DNA of 64,000 nucleotides. Origin: Candidatus Binatota bacterium (GTDB lineage Bacteria > Desulfobacterota > Binatia > UBA1149 > CAITLU01). The notes below the pieces were generated by a model that saw only the letters and a program-made list of their open reading frames with translations, did not search any database and was not told where the DNA came from. Each line of letters begins with the position of its first letter. Position 1 is the first letter of the stretch. A program made the position numbers and the translations under genes. Shown in pieces: positions 29,969 through 55,288 of this stretch. The stretch is from the NCBI GenBank assembly GCA_024276575.1, contig JAJRWY010000131.1, positions 1,268 through 65,267 of the forward strand, written 5' to 3'.

Positions 29969-30045
<77 letters not shown>

Positions 30046-30082
30046 CTTTCCGGCGGTTCCGATTCTCGAGGTTCCGCCGAGC

Positions 30083-30159
30083 GCGCCAGTAGCTCAGTTG
30101 GATAGAGCATCGGCCTTCTAAGCCGGTGGTCGCAGGTTCGAGTCCTGCCTGGCGCGCCA
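30083..30159 (+). tRNA. tRNA-Arg (anticodon TCT)
   Basis: Acceptor GCGCCAG/CTGGCGC, D-arm AGCTCAGTTGGATAGAGC, anticodon loop CTTCTAA, T-loop GGTTCGAGTCC, and an encoded CCA. Confidence 0.85.
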
Positions 30160-33380: not shown

Positions 33381-33840
33381 TTCTACGAAGGATGTCTTTC
33401 TGCGTGAGTTCGAGCGGCTGGCCAAGCGGTATCGCGTAAACCTGGACGACATCGTCTACCGCGAGCAGGTGGCGATGCTGCTAGACGACTTCGGGTCAAG
33501 CGGCCCGGAAACGATTTCGCTGGCGTTCGAGCTGCTACGCCGGCAAGGCCACGAGTTCTTTCCCAACTATGGACAGATCGCCGCGGCGATCTCGCGCGCG
33601 CGGCAGGTCATCGCTGATCGCCGGGCCGCGGATGAGCGCCGGCGGTGGTCCCGGCCTCAAGCCCGGATAAGCGGCGCCTTGGGCAAAGCGGTCAGCTACG
33701 CGATCCGAAATCAGCGGCTCTTATCCAAGCCGGAAATGTCGCATCAGATCGAGAAGATCCTTTCCGGAGACGAGCCGGGAGTGGATCCAGGGCAAGCGAG
33801 TGCAGACGTCTGCACTGCCGACGGAGGAACCCAGATATGA
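33374..33840 (+). CDS. hypothetical phage protein (replication-module)
   Basis: 155 aa; ATGA-coupled. Confidence 0.35.
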
Positions 33841-35351
33841 TCGAAGCTGCAGAATTACCTGAAGAGTCGGCCACTCGAGTGGACATGATTCCGCTGTGTG
33901 CGATCGCGGAATCGCCGAGCAACCCTCGAAAGACGTTCGGAGATCTCAGCGAGCTGACCGAGAGCGTGAAGGCCTGCGGAGTACTTCAACCGATCTTGGT
34001 AAGGCCCGACGCTGACGGCTACGAACTCGTCTTTGGCCACCGCCGTGTTCGAGCCGCGCGCGCGGCCGGTCTCGAACAAGTGCCGGCGATGATTCGAGAT
34101 CTCGACGACACTCAAGTCCTCGAGGCCCAAATCATCGAGAACTGCCACCGCGAGGACATCCACCCGCTGGAAGAGGCCGACAGCTACCGGATCTTGCATG
34201 AGGAGCACGGCTACGAGGTCGAAGAGCTTGCGGCGAAAGTCGGGCAATCAAAAAGCTACATCTACGCCAGGATGAAGTTGTGTGCTTTGGGTGAAGAAGG
34301 GCGCAAGGCCTTCATTGAGGGGAAACTCACTGCGTCGACAGCGCTGCTTGTGGCGCGGATTCCGAACACAGAGCTGCAAGTCGAGGCAACCAACGACATT
34401 ACCAGGGAGACCGAGTGGAGTTCTCCTATGTCGTATCGCTACGCCAAGGAGTATGTTCGCAGGACCTACATGCTGCAGCTCAAAGGGGCGCCGTTCTCGA
34501 GGAAAGCCGAAGATCTTGGCGCCGGCGCTTGTACTACTTGCCCTAAGAGGACCGGCAACCAGAGCGAATTGTTCGAGGACGTTGGTAGTGCAGACGTCTG
34601 CACGGATCCGCCCTGCTACCAGCGCAAGGTCGACGCGACGTGGCAAAAGACGGCTGAGCGATACCGCAAGAAGGGTATAACCGTTATCGACGACCCCAAG
34701 GAGATCAAGAAGATCTTCCCCTACGGTGACAATTTGGCTTGGAACTCGGGTTACGTCGATCTTCATGACCGATGTGAGGACGATCCCGAAAACCGGCAAT
34801 ATGCCAAGCTGCTTGGAAAACGGGCCATCGGAGACATGGTGCTGGCGCGCGATCCAGACGGCAAAGCACGCCAGCTCTTCCCCAACGACAAGCTCGTTGA
34901 GGCGCTCAAGGCGGTGGGCCACGATTTCTCGACAAGCAGCTCTGACGAGGATGGTCCCGAGGACCCACATGAAACCATAGATAGCGAGTTCGAAGCTCGG
35001 CTCTGCAATCGTGTAATGGAGCGCCTAGTAGCGGCCGTTGAAGCGAGAGAGCCCGACGAGGCATTCTGGCGCGCGTGTCTGGCTGATCACGACATGATCG
35101 ATTGCGTGATCGACCGACGCCAGTGGAATAGTGACGAATATCCGGGTCCAGAAGAGATCGATGCTCGATTAGCCGAGATAACGGTTCCGCAACTGCGAGG
35201 CCTTGTGTTCGAGACCTGCGTTACCGGGCTTGTGCTGCCGGTTTGGCGCGAAGAGCAACGTCAGAAAACCTCTGGGTTCTGTGCGCGTCTTGGACTCGAT
35301 TACGAGCAGATTAGGGAAGAGCTGCGCCAAGAAGAGGCGGATACGGCATGA
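33837..35351 (+). CDS. ParB-like nuclease domain protein
   Basis: ParB N-terminal domain (VLQPILVRPDADGYELVFGHRRVRAARAAG ... IIENCHRED) with a C-terminal Cys cluster (CTTCPKRTG ... CTDPPC). Confidence 0.6.
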   Translation: MIEAAELPEESATRVDMIPLCAIAESPSNPRKTFGDLSELTESVKACGVLQPILVRPDADGYELVFGHRRVRAARAAGLEQVPAMIRDLDDTQVLEAQIIENCHREDIHPLEEADSYRILHEEHGYEVEELAAKVGQSKSYIYARMKLCALGEEGRKAFIEGKLTASTALLVARIPNTELQVEATNDITRETEWSSPMSYRYAKEYVRRTYMLQLKGAPFSRKAEDLGAGACTTCPKRTGNQSELFEDVGSADVCTDPPCYQRKVDATWQKTAERYRKKGITVIDDPKEIKKIFPYGDNLAWNSGYVDLHDRCEDDPENRQYAKLLGKRAIGDMVLARDPDGKARQLFPNDKLVEALKAVGHDFSTSSSDEDGPEDPHETIDSEFEARLCNRVMERLVAAVEAREPDEAFWRACLADHDMIDCVIDRRQWNSDEYPGPEEIDARLAEITVPQLRGLVFETCVTGLVLPVWREEQRQKTSGFCARLGLDYEQIREELRQEEADTA

Positions 35352-47983: not shown

Positions 47984-50053
47984 ATGGCGGAAAGAAAGAC
48001 TCTTGAGATAGTCGCCAAGCTCAAAGATCTGGTTTCGAAGAACACGGGCCGGATCCGCGAGTCGATCTCGCGAATGTCGCTGGGGATCAGCCGGTCGTTT
48101 CAGTCGGCGACCCGGGCGGTCTTCAACATGCGCACGGCGCTTCTCGGCCTGGCCGGCGGCGCGGTAGCGCGTGAGTTTGTGTCGGCCGGTGCTTCGGTAC
48201 AGCGATTCCGGGTACAGCTCGAGGCCTTGATGCAAGACGAGGCGCGAGCGGCCAAGGTGTTGAACGACATCCGTCGCTTTGCCGCTGAATCTCCGCTGGA
48301 AACCGAGAACCTGGTCGAGGCCTTCGTGAACTTGGAGGCCGTTGGAGTGCCGGCCGCCGAGCGGGCCGTGAAGCAACTCGGCAACGTGGCTGTCATCTTC
48401 AACCGTGACATACGCGACGTCGCCTCCGGCTTTATCGGAGTGGAAACGGAGGTACTTCGCCGACTCGGCGTCGAGTTGAAGCGAGCCGGGGACACGGCGG
48501 TCCTGCAGTCGGGGAAGATCCGTATCGAGACCGAAAACACGACGGTTGCGATTAGAGAAGCGCTACTGGAGTTGTGGGGCAAGCGCTTTCCTAACGCTAT
48601 GGAGCGGGCCGGAACGATGTGGGACGCCCAAATGGCCAAGTTCCGCGGCGCGCTCTTCGAGTTGAGAGCCGATATGGTCGCACACGTCATGCCGTCGATC
48701 GGTAAGACGCTCGATCGGCTAAGCGATGCGATAAACCGCAACCGTGACCGCATTGTGGCCATGGCGCGGTCGATGGGCCAGGTCTGGTCTCTTGCCGTCG
48801 AGTTTATCAAGAAGAAGTTCGACAACACGCTAGGCTCCACGGCATGGTGGGCGCGCGTTCCGGAACGAGCTGTTAAGGCGACGTGGGGCATCGTTAGCGC
48901 CTTCCTCGGCGCTTTGCAGATCATCATGAAGAACTGGCGCGAGGTCGGGTCGCTGATCTTCCAGCCGATCCTTACGGCTGTAGCTATAGGTTTCCGCACC
49001 CTGTTCACCCAGATACAGGAGTCGATTCGCGCGCTGGTCAACTGGATGAGCTTTGCTTTGCCGGATTCCTGGGTTGAGGCGGTTAACTCGATGCGCCTTA
49101 CCTGGGATGAGGCCGCAAGATTCAACCAGGACGCGATCGAAGACATGCTCACCAAGGTGAAGGCGTCATTCGATGTTATCATCGGCGAGATTCGTGATGC
49201 CGGAGTCAACAGCGAGAATATCGGTGGCGCGCTCGAGGAAGCCGGCCGAAGTACAGGATTGCTCGCGCTGGTTCAGCGGATAAATGCTGTCGTCGAGCGA
49301 AACCTAGAGGCGGTAAAGAAGACGCGGGCGGCGTTGGGTGGTGGGGCACCGGCGACGGGAGGAGGTCCTGTTCTCGGTAGCGCTGGCGCCGGGGGGCAAG
49401 AGGGCGATAGAGACCCTAACAAGAAGACTTTCTGGCAGGAACTGAAAGAGTCTATCGCGAATACGCTTACGGAGCTTTCGAAGTTCGAGATCAAAGCCTC
49501 CGAGATAGCGCAGAATGTGGGTGAAGCGTTCCAGACGAGCTTTGGAAGAGCGTTCAAGAATGTCGCCAAGGGGATGCAGTCAGTTGGTGACGCTATGAAG
49601 AGCATCCTTGATTCTGTGTTGGAACGAATAGCCGACGTGCTTCTTCAGATTGCAGCCATGAAGGCCCAGGCGTTGGCCTCGAGGGCACTTCTTGGTGCGG
49701 GCTTCAATCTCGGGTTTACGGCGGCCAACGGTGCGATCATGGCGGGCGGGTGGCAGCCGGCGGCCAGTTTTGCGGCAGGTGGGATCGTTCGCGGGCCGAC
49801 ACTCGGGATTCTTGGTGACAACTCCAGTCGCGTCGAAGCGGCGGTGCCCATGCCGGACGGGAAACACATTCCCGTTGATCTACGTGGCGGCGGTCAGAGT
49901 GAGATCAACGTGAATTTCACTGTCGTGGCGACGGATCCTCGCGGGATTCAGCAGATGCTTGTCGGCGAGAAGCGAACCATCATAGATCTATTTCGGGAAG
50001 CCTTGGCGACGGAACCGGGCCTGCGGAACGAAGTTCGCGGGATACGACGCTAG
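47984..50053 (+). CDS. tail tape measure protein
   Basis: 689-aa helical protein after G/GT. Confidence 0.8.
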   Translation: MAERKTLEIVAKLKDLVSKNTGRIRESISRMSLGISRSFQSATRAVFNMRTALLGLAGGAVAREFVSAGASVQRFRVQLEALMQDEARAAKVLNDIRRFAAESPLETENLVEAFVNLEAVGVPAAERAVKQLGNVAVIFNRDIRDVASGFIGVETEVLRRLGVELKRAGDTAVLQSGKIRIETENTTVAIREALLELWGKRFPNAMERAGTMWDAQMAKFRGALFELRADMVAHVMPSIGKTLDRLSDAINRNRDRIVAMARSMGQVWSLAVEFIKKKFDNTLGSTAWWARVPERAVKATWGIVSAFLGALQIIMKNWREVGSLIFQPILTAVAIGFRTLFTQIQESIRALVNWMSFALPDSWVEAVNSMRLTWDEAARFNQDAIEDMLTKVKASFDVIIGEIRDAGVNSENIGGALEEAGRSTGLLALVQRINAVVERNLEAVKKTRAALGGGAPATGGGPVLGSAGAGGQEGDRDPNKKTFWQELKESIANTLTELSKFEIKASEIAQNVGEAFQTSFGRAFKNVAKGMQSVGDAMKSILDSVLERIADVLLQIAAMKAQALASRALLGAGFNLGFTAANGAIMAGGWQPAASFAAGGIVRGPTLGILGDNSSRVEAAVPMPDGKHIPVDLRGGGQSEINVNFTVVATDPRGIQQMLVGEKRTIIDLFREALATEPGLRNEVRGIRR

Positions 50054-50058
50054 ACGGA

Positions 50059-50595
50059 CTACTTCCGAGCCGTCCGCGTTTCGTCTTCACGGACCTTCAG
50101 TCCCCACGGGCTTTTGTACATGCGGCCCTCGCTCCATGCACGATAGAGATCCTCTTGTTCCAGCAACCAGCCCGTCTGGCCGGCGGTAAGGTCGAAGTAC
50201 GCGACCGCAGTAAATGGGACCGTGGAAATGGTCCCGCCGAACGTATTGGTCCCGTAGACATGTGATTTGCCCGGATGTCCCAGCACGTAAACCTTATGAC
50301 CTTCAAGGATAACGGTTCCCCCACGGACCGGATACTCGACGAGAACGGTGGATCCTTCGGCGCGGCTCCCAAAGCCTTCGACATAGAGTTGGAACGTTGC
50401 GCCGGTGTCCAAATCCTCACGGATCCAGAGTACCTCTCCGGAAAAAGCGTACAGCTCATCCGCATGCGCTTCGGGATTCTTTTGAATCCTCACTAGATCT
50501 TCGAAGCCATGGAGTGGATAGGACCTGACGGCCTTCTGCATTACAGCGCAACCAGAGAGAAGAGTGAGCGTGAGAAATAGAGCTATACGTTTCAT
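50059..50595 (-). CDS. lipoprotein (weak Slp-like), candidate superinfection-exclusion factor
   Basis: Lipobox LTLLSGC; ATGA-coupled to the upstream WYL gene. Confidence 0.5.
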   Translation of the reverse strand: MKRIALFLTLTLLSGCAVMQKAVRSYPLHGFEDLVRIQKNPEAHADELYAFSGEVLWIREDLDTGATFQLYVEGFGSRAEGSTVLVEYPVRGGTVILEGHKVYVLGHPGKSHVYGTNTFGGTISTVPFTAVAYFDLTAGQTGWLLEQEDLYRAWSEGRMYKSPWGLKVREDETRTARK

Positions 50596-51098
50596 GCTGT
50601 GTCCTCCATCCACCGTTTGTAGGCCCGGCGTCCTCGGCCGCTGCGCTCCGTAAGCGAGACCTTCCTCATCCGTGCGAGTTTGAAGGTTCGCTCCTCATTA
50701 CGAAGTCGGCAGAAGGCGACAAGGTAATCGTTGCCTTCAAGCTCCAAGGGGGTAACCGATCTCGTGTTCCATTCTCCCGTGCCGCCGGTGTAGTACTCCA
50801 TGGTTATGTCTTGTTGAGACTCCATCGCTTCCTCGATGATCTTCCGGTTGGGCGCTACAACATCCTGATCGTCGTAGCGATTGCGGACGTCATCTGCGTC
50901 GTCGTAGAGCTGTGGCAATTCTTCGGTTTCGACTTCTGTGGGTGCTTCTCCAGAGCGTTGGCTGCGTCGGGTCCGCCACAAGTAAAAGAATATCCCCAGT
51001 GCAACGAGCGACGCTACAGGGTTGAGTCCCGGTTGGGCGCTCGTACTCAAAGCGACTATTGCGATGAGGAAAAGAAGCACTCTCCAAAGAAATCGCAT
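50592..51098 (-). CDS. two-TM membrane-anchored WYL-domain protein
   Basis: TM1 and TM2 in the first 45 aa. A C-terminal segment (ITMEYYTGGTGEWNTRSVTPLELEGNDYLVAFCRLRNEERTFKLARMRKV) matches the WYL consensus. Confidence 0.5.
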   Translation of the reverse strand: MRFLWRVLLFLIAIVALSTSAQPGLNPVASLVALGIFFYLWRTRRSQRSGEAPTEVETEELPQLYDDADDVRNRYDDQDVVAPNRKIIEEAMESQQDITMEYYTGGTGEWNTRSVTPLELEGNDYLVAFCRLRNEERTFKLARMRKVSLTERSGRGRRAYKRWMEDTA

Positions 51099-51116
51099 GT
51101 GTTCCCCCCTCCGAAC

Positions 51117-51758
51117 TTATTCCGCCGAGCCTAGAATCGCGGCTGCGGCGCCATAGATAGTGAGTGTGCGTCTACAGTCTCCCAAGGCTCGGTGCTCTCG
51201 GTCCAGGGAAAGTCCTCTAGCTTGGGCCAAATCAGAAAGGCGGTAGCTATCCCGGCCGGGCCAAGCCCTGCGAGACATTTTCAGGGCGCAGGATACGGGA
51301 TTATGAAGTTCCCGGCCCGGCTGGCACTGACTTACCGCTTCTCTCAGAAACCCCATATCGAACGGTGCATTGAAAGAGACCAAGGGGAGGTCTCCAATGA
51401 AGTCGAGAAAAGCGCCAAGTGCGTCTTCAAGCGAGTCTCCGTCGCGGTCCACCATCCGTTGGGTGATGCCGGTGAGTTTGGTGATCTTCTTCGGAATCTT
51501 CGCCTTGGGCCGGATCAGGGCCTCGAAGCTCTGATGGTGAACAGAGTCACGGGAGACGCGGATCGCGCCGATTTCGATGATCTCATTCTGCGTTGGGCTC
51601 AGGCCTGTAGTTTCAAGATCGAACACCACGAACTGTTCCGGGAGGGCGGAGAGATCGGTAGGGGGCGGCGACGCCCTCTTACGCGAGGCTCGTCTGGCCA
51701 AAGCAACGGTTGCGATGACTAGAAAGGCGATTCCGAATAGCGTTGCCGTGACGGTCAT
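51117..51758 (-). CDS. membrane-anchored DEDDh 3'-5' exonuclease (DnaQ-like)
   Basis: N-terminal TM helix followed by a basic stretch. Exo I is FVVFDLETTG, Exo II is SFNAPFDMGFL, and Exo III is EHRALGDC. Confidence 0.65.
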   Translation of the reverse strand: MTVTATLFGIAFLVIATVALARRASRKRASPPPTDLSALPEQFVVFDLETTGLSPTQNEIIEIGAIRVSRDSVHHQSFEALIRPKAKIPKKITKLTGITQRMVDRDGDSLEDALGAFLDFIGDLPLVSFNAPFDMGFLREAVSQCQPGRELHNPVSCALKMSRRAWPGRDSYRLSDLAQARGLSLDREHRALGDCRRTLTIYGAAAAILGSAE

Positions 51759-51955
51759 CGCGCGTTCCTCGGATTCTTCAGTTCCAACCCTAAATGCTTG
51801 GCTAGCACCGAGGCATTGGAAAGCTTCATGTCGGTTCCGGACAGGAACCTAGAAATCGTGGATTGAGGTATTCCGGTCTCGCCGGCGAGAGTCCGCGCGG
51901 ACTTCCCGGAAGTCTTGATGGCGGCCCGGAGTGTGTCTGCCAGGTCTTTCGGCAT
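51755..51955 (-). CDS. XRE-family HTH regulator
   Basis: SARTLAGETGIPQSTISRFLSG is a Cro/C1-type HTH; 4-nt overlap with the exonuclease gene. Confidence 0.65.
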   Translation of the reverse strand: MPKDLADTLRAAIKTSGKSARTLAGETGIPQSTISRFLSGTDMKLSNASVLAKHLGLELKNPRNAR

Positions 51956-51972
51956 GCCTCCCCCTACGGGCT

Positions 51973-51992
51973 ATGATGCATACATGCATATA
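51973..51992 (-). promoter_or_regulatory. ATGCAT-ACATGCAT repeat upstream of the XRE gene, candidate operator/promoter
   Basis: Two ATGCAT hexamers and a TATAT box lie 20-40 nt upstream of the XRE start. Confidence 0.3.
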
Positions 51993-52015
51993 GGGTGTCA
52001 AGGGGCGGTAGACGT

Positions 52016-52282
52016 CTATCTTATTAGCTTTAGTCGTCGCAAGTCGGTCTCGGTCCAGCCGATGTCTGTTAGTAGGCTGGCCAACAAGCTCCAGCCGTAG
52101 GTCTTTGTCTTGCTTGGGTGATAGTGAATTACTACTCGTTTCGACGCGCTAGAGGTCTTGACGAACGCCCGGGTCGCGCCTCGGGTGACGTCTTCTTGCC
52201 ACCCATCTTTTTTGAGCGCTCGGATCAGGTCTTTCGGCGTAAGCTTTTTTAGCTGATCCCGTATGTTCCGGGAGAATGGCAT
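52016..52282 (-). CDS. HicA-like (YcfA fold) toxin homolog
   Basis: DLIRALKKDGW ... RVVIHYHPSKTKTYGWSLLASLLTDIGW fits HicA, but the canonical GSH catalytic His is replaced (RGAT). Confidence 0.45.
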   Translation of the reverse strand: MPFSRNIRDQLKKLTPKDLIRALKKDGWQEDVTRGATRAFVKTSSASKRVVIHYHPSKTKTYGWSLLASLLTDIGWTETDLRRLKLIR

Positions 52283-52572
52283 CCGACCGTTATGTGGTGA
52301 AGCAAGGCTCCTTCCGGTATTTCAGGAATCTCGCGCTGTTCAAGCGTAAGGTTGGGACCTACGGGGAGTGGGTCTCCGTGCTGGGCGAGCGAGTCTAGGT
52401 AGACCTTAATTGCCTCAGTGGCGTTCTGGAGCGCGTCGTTGATGGTGTCACCGGGCACATGCAGCCCTTTCAAACCCGGACAGAAAGCGTGATACGTACC
52501 ATCCTCTTCCTTCTCGACGACAACCGTCACACTCAAGCGCAACTCCACCCGTCGACGACCCAAAAGAGTCAT
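52249..52572 (-). CDS. HicB-like antitoxin (UPF0150 domain)
   Basis: VELRLSVTVVVEKEEDGTYHAFCPGLKGLHVPGDTINDALQNATEAIKVYLD matches the HicB N-domain consensus. Confidence 0.55.
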   Translation of the reverse strand: MTLLGRRRVELRLSVTVVVEKEEDGTYHAFCPGLKGLHVPGDTINDALQNATEAIKVYLDSLAQHGDPLPVGPNLTLEQREIPEIPEGALLHHITVGCHSPGTYGIS

Positions 52573-52686
52573 GAGACGTTGAAACATCCGGACCTCCCTG
52601 ATTGCGGCTGGACAACTCCCGCTAGGTCATTTATGGGGCTAATCTATCACCAGAGTCAAGATAAGTAGCAACTTCTTGCAGGCAAG

Positions 52687-52777: not shown

Positions 52778-55288
52778 GTGCTGGAAACCCCAATGGCGAC
52801 GATTCCACGAACAGACGCTTTTCCCTCCCTTGTGGGGGGTATCCCCAGCGACGGGGCCGCCTATCTCCTCGGTGACCACATAGCCGTCGATAAGGCCTCG
52901 GATGCCTACGGAGAGGCCAACCGCTACGGTTCCAGGGACGCCGGCGTCATCTGGACCGATGCCTCGAAGGCCGCTGCGGCTTGGCTGGCCTATCGCGGGA
53001 TCGGCGCCGAGGAGAACGAGATCATCACGGGCAAGTTCTTCTGGCGGCATGTGAGCGGTGCCACCCGGCAGTCTGTCTCGCTTGGTCTCATGGCGCGCTT
53101 GGGCAATATCTCCTCGTCGTCGGCCGGGCCCCCTGAGCACTGGTATAAGGCAGACGCTTACGTCTTCGAGGCGGAGATCGACCCGGACGCCGAGACGGCC
53201 GACTTCTATCTGAGGCGCGTGGACCAAGGGGTGAAGACCACGCTGACGAGCTCGCTGGCGGTGTCCTGGCCGGAGTTTCGCAACTATGAGCTCGAACTCA
53301 GGTGCTTGTCGCTGTCCGATGGGAAGGTGGTGCTGTTCGCCAAGTTGGACGGGGACAACTTGTTATCTGCCGTCGACGCAGTAGGCAGCGCGCTTACGGG
53401 CGCTGGCCACTACGGTTTTCTGACGTCCAGCGGCAAGGCCGCGGCTGGTGAAACCAGGGCCTCAATCCGGAATTTCAAGGCGGCTGCGCTCTCCGACGGC
53501 TCGGTCTGGCTCGACGACGATTTCGACCGTCCCAACAGGGTAGGGGCGGATGACTACTACGTCCGGTCGTTTTGGAGCCACACGGAGGCTGTAACGACCG
53601 CCGGTGGGCAGATTTCGTATGGATCCGAGTCTGGAATCGAGCGCGTCTCGATGTACCAGGCCGTGCCTACGGACGAGGACTACACCGTTCGGGCCGACCT
53701 CACCTACCCGAACACCGCTGATGCGCACTGGTGCGGCGTAGTCGCGCGCGGCGGCAAGGGGTCGTCGGGCGGAGATCTCGATTCCTTCACCGGGTATCTC
53801 GCCCGGCTACGGATCGACACCTCGACCAACAACCTCGAACTCAAGAAGGTTATCAACGGGGCGGTTATCTGGACGCAGCAGGCGGACGTGTCCGGGCTGT
53901 CGGCGAGTACGCCGATCGAGCTCAAGCTCGATGTGAGCGGAAGCGGAGACGTGACGCTGAAGGTCTACGTCGACACGGTTCTCAAGCTGACAGTGACCGA
54001 CCAAGACGCCAACCGGCTACTGCAAAAGGGCCAGTCCGGGATTTACCTGAATCGTGCGTCAGGCGGATCCGGTGCGCTTGTCGCCGATGATTTCGTTCTC
54101 GGGGATCCGCCGGCGTCGGCGAGCTCGTTTACACGAGTCGCGGTGGCGGATGAGGACGTCGGTGGGATCACTCGATACTTTGTCCAGGGGGAAGATCTGA
54201 CGGGGCAAATAGACGGCGCCACGGCCACCTTCACACTGGCTCAGACACCGGCGAGCGCGGCGGAGACGGCAGTGTTTCGAAACGGGATCCGTATGGAGCG
54301 TGTGGCATCATCTCCCGGCGAGAATCAGTACACGGTCAACACGGGCGCGGCGAGTATTACGATCGGCGGAACTGTGCCGGCAAGTGGCGAGACGCTAGTG
54401 ATCGACTACCCGCTTGTCGGCAATACGGACCTGGTCATCGGTGAAGAGCCGTCCGGGACGAAAAACGGCCTGAACTACATCTTTACGTTGGCCAGCACGC
54501 CGAAGCGTTTGGAAGCGATCCGCGTTTATCTGGCCGGGGTCCGCTTGAGCTATGTGGCTGCGGGAAATCCCGGCATAGGCCAGTTTGCTGTTCCGAACCC
54601 CACCACGATCGTCGTGGGCCTGGCGCCGACTTCCACAACGGCGTTGGTAGCTGACTACGTGTCCGGCGGAAGTCTGGTCATTGAGACTCCGACCTACGGA
54701 GAGGTGCCCACGGGTGCGATCGACGGCTCGAACCGGGTATTCGAGCTCGTTGCAGCTCCGAATTCGCCGGCCGAGTGCGCGCCGGCGGTAAACGGGGTGC
54801 ATCTGAAGTACTCGGCCGCGAGCCCCGGGGCCATGGAGTTCTCTTTGGTGGATAAGACGATCACGCTGGGAGAGGCACCGCCTGCGGGTGCGGAGGTCCG
54901 GGTCGACTATGTTCGCTCTGATCTCTTCGAGCTGCTCTTCAACTACGTGCCGGATTATCCGTTCCGGGCGATCGACCGCTTCCAGACCATCAAGTACGGG
55001 TTTGAGTACGGCTACGAGCAGAGCTGGCCGGTCCGGGCTCAGAGCCGGCGGCGCTTCGAGTGCGTATTTGGCAATCGAGACAAAGCGGAGCGAGACGCCA
55101 TCATGAGCTTCATCGAGGCCCGGGTGGGCTCTCACCAGCAGTTTTCGTGGGTTCCTCCGGACGAGACCGATCCGATCACGGTGCATCTCAAGGGAGTCTC
55201 GGCCAGGGCCTCAAAGACCAACCCTGACAACTACTCGATTCACCTGGTGCTCGAGGAACTCATTACCTTCACGGCGGCCGCAGCATGA
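52778..55288 (+). CDS. minor tail protein M-like domain fused to a large N-terminal lectin/Ig-like extension
   Basis: The C-terminal ~110 aa show a gpM pattern (FSWVPPDE ... EELI). Upstream are three ~75-aa Ig-like repeats and two beta-sandwich-like modules. Confidence 0.55.
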   Translation: MLETPMATIPRTDAFPSLVGGIPSDGAAYLLGDHIAVDKASDAYGEANRYGSRDAGVIWTDASKAAAAWLAYRGIGAEENEIITGKFFWRHVSGATRQSVSLGLMARLGNISSSSAGPPEHWYKADAYVFEAEIDPDAETADFYLRRVDQGVKTTLTSSLAVSWPEFRNYELELRCLSLSDGKVVLFAKLDGDNLLSAVDAVGSALTGAGHYGFLTSSGKAAAGETRASIRNFKAAALSDGSVWLDDDFDRPNRVGADDYYVRSFWSHTEAVTTAGGQISYGSESGIERVSMYQAVPTDEDYTVRADLTYPNTADAHWCGVVARGGKGSSGGDLDSFTGYLARLRIDTSTNNLELKKVINGAVIWTQQADVSGLSASTPIELKLDVSGSGDVTLKVYVDTVLKLTVTDQDANRLLQKGQSGIYLNRASGGSGALVADDFVLGDPPASASSFTRVAVADEDVGGITRYFVQGEDLTGQIDGATATFTLAQTPASAAETAVFRNGIRMERVASSPGENQYTVNTGAASITIGGTVPASGETLVIDYPLVGNTDLVIGEEPSGTKNGLNYIFTLASTPKRLEAIRVYLAGVRLSYVAAGNPGIGQFAVPNPTTIVVGLAPTSTTALVADYVSGGSLVIETPTYGEVPTGAIDGSNRVFELVAAPNSPAECAPAVNGVHLKYSAASPGAMEFSLVDKTITLGEAPPAGAEVRVDYVRSDLFELLFNYVPDYPFRAIDRFQTIKYGFEYGYEQSWPVRAQSRRRFECVFGNRDKAERDAIMSFIEARVGSHQQFSWVPPDETDPITVHLKGVSARASKTNPDNYSIHLVLEELITFTAAAA

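Follow-up and report, generated by a model that had tools for sequence, protein, structure and literature searches.

What a nuclease, a WYL domain and a putative lipoprotein are doing side by side among the tail genes of a phage is the question raised by a 64,000-nucleotide stretch of DNA from a Candidatus Binatota bacterium (contig JAJRWY010000131.1; the whole stretch is hereafter called the window). Between the tape-measure gene and an M-like tail gene of a prophage in this window lies a group of genes on the opposite strand. Four of these form a closely packed cassette, encoding a small XRE-type regulator, a DEDDh exonuclease with a predicted N-terminal transmembrane (TM) helix (TM-exonuclease), a WYL-domain protein with a predicted membrane hairpin (TM-WYL) and a lipoprotein (Table 1). 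A previous interpretation, made from the letters and their translations (the sequence-only reading), proposed that the four genes may be a novel membrane-associated nuclease module of prophage defence. The part of this claim that stands is the link between exonuclease and WYL domains, which recurs as fusions elsewhere, but a conserved four-gene system is not found. The cassette is a mosaic put together in this phage lineage, and its novelty lies in the splitting of a catalogued WYL-exonuclease combination over two proteins, each with a predicted membrane anchor. The overall picture of a split, membrane-anchored nuclease-WYL module, possibly acting in the manner of the phage-defence nuclease SNIPE, is put forward tentatively, with somewhat less than an even chance of being correct.

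The exonuclease and the WYL protein

The second gene of the cassette encodes a DEDDh exonuclease, as is evident from matches to Pfam RNase_T (3.9e-32, 112.5 bits with a cut-off of 24), the NCBIfam epsilon-family domain model TIGR00573 (89 bits, cut-off 71.5) and PHROG 192, annotated as 'DNA polymerase exonuclease subunit' (1.3e-45). The catalytic residues D47 and E49 (Exo I), D134 (Exo II), and H189 and D194 (Exo III) are invariant in 17 of 17 family members (alignment A1). The protein scores far below the models for true DnaQ or PolC orthologues (78.4 against 222.7 for TIGR01406; 131.9 against 873 for PolC NF001688). Its nearest sequences in the PDB are the PolC exonuclease, DnaQ, Cas2-DEDDh and the DinG exonuclease, all of which are DNA enzymes. 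The PolC and DnaQ proofreaders and Cas2-DEDDh are the closest solved relatives (E-values of 2e-24 to 5e-22) and share all five DEDDh residues. However, the window protein has no polymerase or Cas2 partner and carries an N-terminal membrane helix that is not present in those enzymes. Hydropathy analysis yields a single strong N-terminal hydrophobic segment, which is followed by the basic stretch RRASRKR, so that by the positive-inside rule the protein is predicted to have one N-terminal TM helix and a cytoplasmic catalytic domain.

Comparison with PADLOC gave domain-level matches only, namely to WYL, to DEDDh and to part of PDC-S48. The match of the exonuclease to PDC-S48 (4.4e-26) covers the first ~160 positions (4-163 of 411; 19-172 of 512); the protein is not a member of this system, as the remaining C-terminal part of the model is absent from it. 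A likeness to the defence effector Cap18, which had been proposed earlier, finds no support in homology, the PADLOC 'Effector/Exonuclease' model being matched partially (2e-7, positions 6-108 of 184 only). Furthermore, no match to the cyclase (CD-NTase) families of cyclic-oligonucleotide-based antiphage signalling systems (CBASS) was found among the six insert proteins and two flanking tail proteins scanned.

The protein search returned more than 1,800 matches to the exonuclease. Its close family consists of proteins of about 200 residues that are 55-68% identical and all have the same N-terminal hydrophobic helix; members are present in Sedimentisphaera, Sulfurimonas, Novosphingobium, Stutzerimonas, Acidobacteriota and others. 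In the 12 or more loci of this close family that were examined, the gene is solitary with variable neighbours. These are often accessory, defence-type or mobile genes, namely AbiJ-like genes, an MmeI-type restriction-modification system, Mrr with HNH, HigBA, PIN/Phd accompanied by a group II intron, and a P4-like element; at other loci they are ordinary housekeeping genes. Inspection by eye also revealed BRCT-like C-terminal extensions or BRCT-like neighbours at three loci (L010, 769-2923; L016, 6600-7259; L012, 5722-6900), the first of which has a second exonuclease gene of 302 amino acids (aa) nearby.

TM-WYL matches Pfam WYL (PF13280) over residues 87-147 with 1.6e-13 and 50.9 bits, well above the gathering score of 21.8. 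Its hydropathy profile contains one strong segment and a second, shorter one that reaches about 1.24 on a 19-residue Kyte-Doolittle window, below the TM cut-off of 1.6. The AlphaFold2 model, built on an alignment of 90 sequences, has a mean predicted local distance difference test score (pLDDT) of 80.9, with the barrel at about 95. It starts with a helical hairpin (residues 2-21 and 27-48) that is followed by RTRRSQRS, an acidic linker that is poorly ordered, and a helix at 77-93, and it continues into a five-stranded WYL beta-barrel (about 87-150; strands 97-150) and a basic C-terminal helix at 156-167 (ERSGRGRRAYKRW). The barrel is Sm/SH3-like and superposes on solved WYL domains: every one of the top 30 Foldseek hits in the PDB is a WYL domain from PafBC, CapW, BrxR or DriD, with root-mean-square deviations of 2.2-3.3 Å over 72-90 residues. 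Residues R113, R133, R137 and R143 are nearly invariant (alignment A4), which hints at binding of single-stranded DNA (ssDNA) or another negatively charged ligand. CapW, DriD and PafBC are reported to bind ssDNA through their WYL domains (PMC11662680).

With these regulators, and with BrxR, TM-WYL shares the WYL fold and the near-invariant R113, R133 and R137. In contrast to the architecture of winged helix-turn-helix (wHTH), WYL and WCX domains that defines them, TM-WYL lacks the wHTH, having no match to any helix-turn-helix (HTH) family and two hydrophobic helices in residues 1-48, and it lacks the WCX domain, as only about 18 residues with the single helix 156-167 follow the barrel. In view of these two absences and of the membrane hairpin found instead, TM-WYL is not a wHTH-WYL-WCX transcription factor. 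A search of 5.8 billion clustered proteins returned TM-WYL itself only and isolated phages contained no match, while the full HMMER search gave one true relative, P0124, with 40% identity over the best-matching stretch and 33% over the full length. P0124 shares with TM-WYL the two hydrophobic segments and a C-terminal ER-GRGRRA--RW motif.

The calls made in the sequence-only reading for these proteins were thus upheld: the XRE, DEDDh and WYL assignments all exceed their Pfam thresholds, the Exo I/II/III motifs are intact, hydropathy agrees with one N-terminal TM helix and RRASRKR ahead of a presumably cytoplasmic exonuclease domain, TM-WYL has no fused HTH and, by the AlphaFold2 hairpin, two TM helices, and no known defence system is recognised.

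Recurrence of the gene order and of the domain combination

The sequence-only reading had looked to conserved synteny in other prophages as support for its system and had taken a lack of it as speaking against the proposal. The loci of exonuclease relatives, 87 from genomes and 80 from viral contigs (about 167 in total), were searched with phmmer and with a WYL hidden Markov model (HMM) built from 149 sequences, and a homologue of TM-WYL or of the lipoprotein, or a close homologue of the XRE protein, was found near the exonuclease in none of them. The single WYL gene near any of these loci is an unrelated open reading frame (ORF) of 355 codons that lies 1.8 kb away on the opposite strand. For these loci a conserved exonuclease-WYL gene pair is rejected; the link at the level of domains is not rejected by this search.

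This link is seen when the WYL domain is followed instead. The 150 best relatives of the window WYL domain, with each 50% cluster represented once, include four fusions of DEDDh to WYL (P0266, P0257, P0228 and P0243); two others are single-chain TM-HNH-WYL proteins (P0231 and P0232) and about ten are membrane-anchored WYL proteins without another recognised domain. As judged from these sequences, the WYL subtype of the window is repeatedly membrane-anchored or fused to a nuclease. One DEDDh-WYL fusion of 280 aa is encoded on a viral contig (L186, 3980-4822) two genes downstream of a RecT gene. On another contig (L182, 2973-5252) an XRE gene, a gene for a small multi-TM protein and a TM-HNH-WYL gene form an operon that is convergent with a tyrosine integrase gene; this cassette follows the same logic as that of the window with another nuclease. 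The fused WYL relatives match no full-length system model in PADLOC, the matches being at domain level only. WYL fusions to 3'-5' exonuclease, HNH, Mrr and TerB domains were catalogued by Makarova et al. in 2014 (PMC4012209), and the association of the domains is therefore not new in itself. The catalogued nuclease-WYL fusions show the same combination of WYL with a DEDDh-type exonuclease, whereas in the window each domain resides on a protein of its own that has a separate predicted membrane anchor.

A second pattern, which the sequence-only reading had not foreseen, emerges from the exonuclease relatives of viruses: the recurrent phage partner of TM-anchored DEDDh exonucleases is an XRE/CI repressor, next to the integrase. 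In IMG/VR contigs, 32 of the 52 exonuclease genes parsed have an XRE-like ORF on the same strand less than 1 kb upstream, against 2 of 71 in genome contigs, where mostly PolC and other housekeeping genes were counted. An N-terminal TM segment is encoded by 17 of the 52 viral genes, and all 17 have the upstream XRE. All eight loci checked with Pfam (L114, L134, L121, L123, L124, L118, L103 and L094, from temperate phage contigs of which several are gut-metagenomic) show the order XRE/CI, TM-DEDDh exonuclease and tyrosine or serine integrase on one strand, with one extra gene intervening in L114 and L124. L121, L123 and L134 are close relatives, several of the loci are near-duplicates, and L124-L132 show this order as well. 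In two of the eight the repressor carries an S24 peptidase domain, identifying true CI-type repressors.

The order marks a position in the lysogeny module, like that of ltp, although the pattern is suggestive and does not amount to proof. The exclusion gene ltp of phage TP-J34 is located in the lysogeny module and transcribed there in the prophage, and an N-terminal helix or a lipid serves as the anchor of known exclusion proteins (PMC3952083). Ltp, Sie2009 and SieA, together with the Cor and Llp lipoproteins, are prophage-expressed, helix- or lipid-anchored proteins that act on DNA entry, and the related TM-exonucleases between repressor and integrase occupy the module in which ltp is also placed. 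However, these exclusion proteins have no sequence similarity to any of the four cassette proteins, and they act by blocking the injection channel or the receptor, none of them being a nuclease. The literature searched contained no account of a TM-DEDDh exonuclease that acts in defence or is encoded in a lysogeny module.

A possible role at the inner membrane and the competing explanations

In the reading favoured here, that of a split nuclease-WYL module, the lysogen would express the operon from the sigma-70-like promoter ahead of xre, with the XRE protein as autoregulator. The catalytic domain and the WYL domain would, by the positive-inside rule, both face the cytoplasm, and the exonuclease and TM-WYL may cooperate at the inner membrane as a two-polypeptide form of the DEDDh-WYL and TM-HNH-WYL single chains. 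The WYL domain would capture ssDNA or frayed DNA ends, which the exonuclease would digest from the 3' end, while the membrane tether would hold the nuclease away from both the circular chromosome and the prophage integrated in it, and near the point at which foreign linear DNA enters. Targets could be the genome of a superinfecting phage or perhaps ssDNA that enters by conjugation or transformation. As to the lipoprotein, it probably acts separately in exclusion at the level of the envelope or is cargo unrelated to the pair. The specific step, degradation of incoming DNA by the cassette, must be called doubtful.

The best functional analogue is SNIPE/PD-lambda-1 (Saxton et al., Nature 2026, PMC13190303). 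SNIPE combines an N-out TM helix with a DUF4041 DNA-binding domain and a nuclease of the GIY-YIG type. It cuts lambda DNA while this is being injected, is associated with the tape-measure protein and is toxic without its TM helix, the membrane tether keeping the nuclease off host DNA and placing it where phage DNA is injected (PMC13190303). The window pair would likewise combine an inner-membrane anchor, here predicted, with a cytoplasmic nucleic-acid-binding module and a nuclease. There is no homology, however: SNIPE carries DUF4041 and its GIY-YIG endonuclease on a single polypeptide, whereas the window has two polypeptides with WYL and a DEDDh exonuclease, and neither DUF4041 nor GIY-YIG was found by Pfam or PADLOC in the four cassette proteins. 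Furthermore, SNIPE is a host defence gene, whereas the cassette is prophage cargo.

If the pair does degrade entering DNA, the principle of SNIPE, in which a nuclease is made safe and specific by its location and not by reading a sequence, would have evolved independently a second time. This would give a function to the family of ~200-residue exonucleases annotated as DNA polymerase III epsilon, to the TM-exonuclease genes that many temperate phages of the gut carry between repressor and integrase, and to the long-catalogued WYL-nuclease fusions. A broader generalisation, which appears rather unlikely, is that TM-DEDDh exonucleases are a widespread and undescribed class of prophage nucleases that destroy incoming DNA at the inner membrane, either alone, led by CI/XRE, or paired with or fused to WYL, with the spatial logic of SNIPE but other domains; the window would then hold the first split exonuclease and WYL form. 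The comparative patterns provide a concrete, testable hypothesis for a large uncharacterised exonuclease family.

Several points weigh against the split-module reading. A free 3' end is required by DEDDh enzymes, which mostly favour single strands, and it is questionable whether they could stop a double-stranded genome during injection. The TM assignments are predictions from hydropathy and AlphaFold2. The four-gene order was seen in the window only, the remaining TM-WYL loci are also without an exonuclease, and the tail-gene slot in which P0124 is encoded has no exonuclease, lipoprotein or HTH_3 regulator. About half of the contexts of the close exonuclease family look like housekeeping neighbourhoods. 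The relatives in the XRE-exonuclease-integrase order are just 31-46% identical to the window protein and belong mostly to low-GC gut phages. Finally, the fusion encoded beside RecT suggests that some exonuclease-WYL proteins function in recombination modules or phage DNA metabolism and not in defence.

The leading alternative is that the exonuclease (with XRE), TM-WYL, the lipoprotein and hicBA are independent morons stacked in a hotspot, each acting alone, their spacing reflecting co-transcription. P0124 occupies the same slot alone, which indicates that the junction of the tape-measure and M-like genes is a cargo site and that a TM-WYL protein can stand by itself there, and the ten or so membrane-anchored WYL representatives without another recognised domain also suit this explanation. 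So do the solitary members of the close exonuclease family, the absence of a TM-WYL or lipoprotein homologue from all of the exonuclease loci searched and the lack of detectable relatives of the lipoprotein. Unexplained by it are the DEDDh-WYL and TM-HNH-WYL fusions, which show a repeated partnership of this WYL subtype with nucleases, the presence of membrane anchors on both the exonuclease and TM-WYL, and the 18-nucleotide (nt) gap and common operon, which suit a pair. It is regarded as rather unlikely, though the most probable of the alternatives.

In a strict form of the sequence-only reading, the four genes would be one obligate membrane-associated abortive-infection or exclusion system, with WYL as its sensor, the exonuclease as its effector, XRE binding DNA as WYL's partner and the lipoprotein as indispensable. 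The translational coupling by ATGA overlaps, the absence of a match to any known system and a domain logic resembling that of HTH-WYL regulators split over two genes speak in its favour. It is nevertheless improbable: the order is found nowhere else, the lipoprotein and the HTH_3 XRE are absent beside P0124, and a membrane-tethered WYL protein without WCX is an unlikely transcription factor to work with XRE.

Comparably low is the probability that the exonuclease and WYL proteins work for the phage itself on its DNA, for instance in recombination, end processing or proofreading, or limit natural transformation or conjugation of the host, in either case without excluding other phages. The DEDDh-WYL fusion near RecT, the strong match to PHROG 192 and the replicative proofreaders as closest solved relatives would fit such a role. 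A membrane tether is hard to square with replication or recombination, however, and the cassette lies as a moron on the reverse strand of the tail module and has a candidate promoter of its own, while TM forms elsewhere are in the lysogeny operon and not in replication modules.

An addiction module, with XRE as antitoxin and the exonuclease as toxin in a type II-like arrangement that stabilises the prophage together with hicBA, would explain the antitoxin-first order with its 4-nt overlap, the adjacent hicBA and the toxin-antitoxin pairs that adjoin members of the close exonuclease family. Since that family is normally without an XRE partner, and the XRE found upstream in phages is a genuine repressor of the CI type that carries an S24 domain, this is very improbable. 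Decaying or neutral cargo without a current function is the least credible explanation, for although close relatives are lacking for two of the four proteins and the phage lineage is almost unsampled, the ORFs are intact with ribosome-binding sites and coding-type composition, the catalytic residues are all invariant and the WYL fold is modelled at high confidence.

The insert and its place in the prophage

Table 1. Features of the opposite-strand insert and its flanking tail genes, with positions in the window
Feature	Position	Strand	Length	Basis and remarks
Tape-measure gene, left flank	47984-50053	+		PHROG tape-measure, best 2.1e-18; convergent with the insert
Lipoprotein gene	50059-50595	-	178 aa	ORF and sequence; ATG start
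TM-WYL gene	50592-51098	-	168 aa	Pfam WYL
TM-exonuclease gene	51117-51758	-	213 aa	Pfam RNase_T
xre	51755-51955	-	66 aa	Pfam HTH_3; first of the four genes
Sigma-70-like promoter candidate	51973-52001	-		Consensus scan; directly upstream of xre
hicA	52016-52282	-	88 aa	Pfam HicA_toxin, 32.2 bits (cut-off 27)
hicB	52249-52587	-	112 aa	HicB_lk_antitox, 35.7 bits (cut-off 27); first gene of the opposite-strand insert
M-like tail gene, right flank	52778-55288	+	836 aa	Pfam/PHROG; divergent from the insert

The packing of the cassette described earlier was confirmed from the sequence, including the four minus-strand ORFs and their coordinates. ATGA start/stop overlaps of 4 nt are present at 50592-50595 (lipoprotein start, TM-WYL stop) and 51755-51758 (exonuclease start, XRE stop), TM-WYL and the exonuclease are spaced by the gap at 51099-51116, and the convergent stops of the tape-measure gene (50051-50053) and the lipoprotein gene (50059-50061) are 5 nt apart. 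The moron position between tape-measure and M genes likewise holds, as Pfam and PHROG identify both flanks. The four genes are real, but the extent of the insert had been underestimated: a hicB-hicA pair lies on the same strand directly upstream and had been missed, so that the opposite-strand insert comprises six genes and not four. The segment 50059-52587 is an island of foreign accessory genes (morons) among the tail genes of a lambda-like prophage, in which the hicB-hicA pair is followed by the XRE-led operon.

All four cassette ORFs have a Shine-Dalgarno-like sequence and a coding-type pattern of GC content over the three codon positions (GC1/2/3). Their GC3 is 0.61-0.69, against 0.71-0.76 in the adjoining structural genes, and the GC content of the insert is 56-57%, against about 60-62% across most of the flanking sequence; the lower values at both levels indicate a foreign origin. 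A search for flanking repeats of a mobile element around the insert gave merely short matches at chance level. Within the cassette, a 20-nt direct repeat of 85% identity (51048-51067 and 51699-51718) falls in the codons of the membrane helices, LIAIVAL in TM-WYL and VIATVAL in the exonuclease. This repeat could be due to chance or could hint at related or interacting membrane anchors.

The xre product is a small XRE/Cro-type HTH regulator, as judged by its matches to Pfam HTH_3 (1.9e-6, 28.3 bits, cut-off 23) and to the transcriptional repressors of PHROG 4583 (4.9e-10). The promoter candidate upstream of its gene reads TTGACA-17-CATCAT and agrees with the consensus at 10 of 12 positions, this consensus match being its sole basis. 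With three promoter-like sites found in the region and 1.3 expected by chance, it is a weak indication. Two self-complementary ATGCAT hexamers (51976-51981 and 51984-51989), 8 bp apart, lie within the promoter-like spacer and -10 element and could be the XRE operator. Further upstream, hicA is located 60 nt from xre on the same strand. The hicB product also matches PHROG 497 (2.9e-11). The antitoxin gene comes first, the two ORFs as called overlap by 34 nt, and with both profiles above threshold in adjacent genes the pair belongs to the HicAB systems.

The product of the last gene has a signal with the lipobox LSGC and Ala at +2 (MKRIALFLTLTLLSGC), as read from the sequence, and its gene has the ribosome-binding site GGAGGA and coding-type GC1/2/3. 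The protein matched only itself in the search of 5.8 billion clustered proteins and had no match in Pfam (including E<=10), PHROG, NCBIfam, PADLOC or the PDB. Its AlphaFold2 model, made from the single sequence, has a pLDDT of 43.8 and is too poor for fold comparison. On the strength of the lipobox it could be a receptor blocker like Cor or Llp, as had been suggested earlier; the lipobox signal peptide expected of an exclusion lipoprotein is present, while sequence similarity to Ltp, Cor or Llp was not detected, and the analogy thus finds no support in homology. A possible resemblance to Slp/OB-fold lipoproteins was given no support by Pfam, even at E<=10.

The prophage occupies the right half of the window, adjoining genes for tRNA-Pro and tRNA-Arg (29969-30159). 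It is lambda-like in its gpA-type large terminase, lambda-family portal, S49 protease, gpT-like capsid protein and tape-measure protein, and the insert is followed by the M-like gene and by L-like and J-like genes. The tape-measure protein is recognised by PHROG tape-measure families and by weak matches to the Pfam TMP model. In the M-like protein, the resemblance to lambda M/DUF2460 is confined to the last ~100 of 836 residues; the N-terminal part of about 700 residues has no family match, yet is conserved in the one related phage that was found.

This sole related phage is represented by the contig that encodes P0124. Its M-like protein (825 aa, L168) is 44% identical overall to that of the window and is followed by L-, K- and J-like genes, and its TM-WYL gene lies in the same slot as that of the window, convergent with the end of the tape-measure gene. 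A possible small ORF resembling ribbon-helix-helix (RHH) proteins is seen upstream of this TM-WYL gene. The slot at L168, 6871-8000 (on the same contig as L176), holds three small genes on the strand of the tail genes, one of which looks like an RHH protein and one of which is cysteine-rich. The contents differ between the window and the L168 slot, and the cargo of the slot therefore differs by phage. The M-like protein has no match in IMG/VR or among 50,697 isolated phages, and one contig was found among metagenome contigs; the prophage lineage is almost unsampled. Even without a role in defence, the junction of the tape-measure and M-like genes is thus shown as a cargo slot in such a lineage. 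A gene at 33645-35351 (+), located upstream of the terminase genes in the prophage's early region, encodes a ParB-like protein of 568 aa with ParB_N and HTH_ParB domains.

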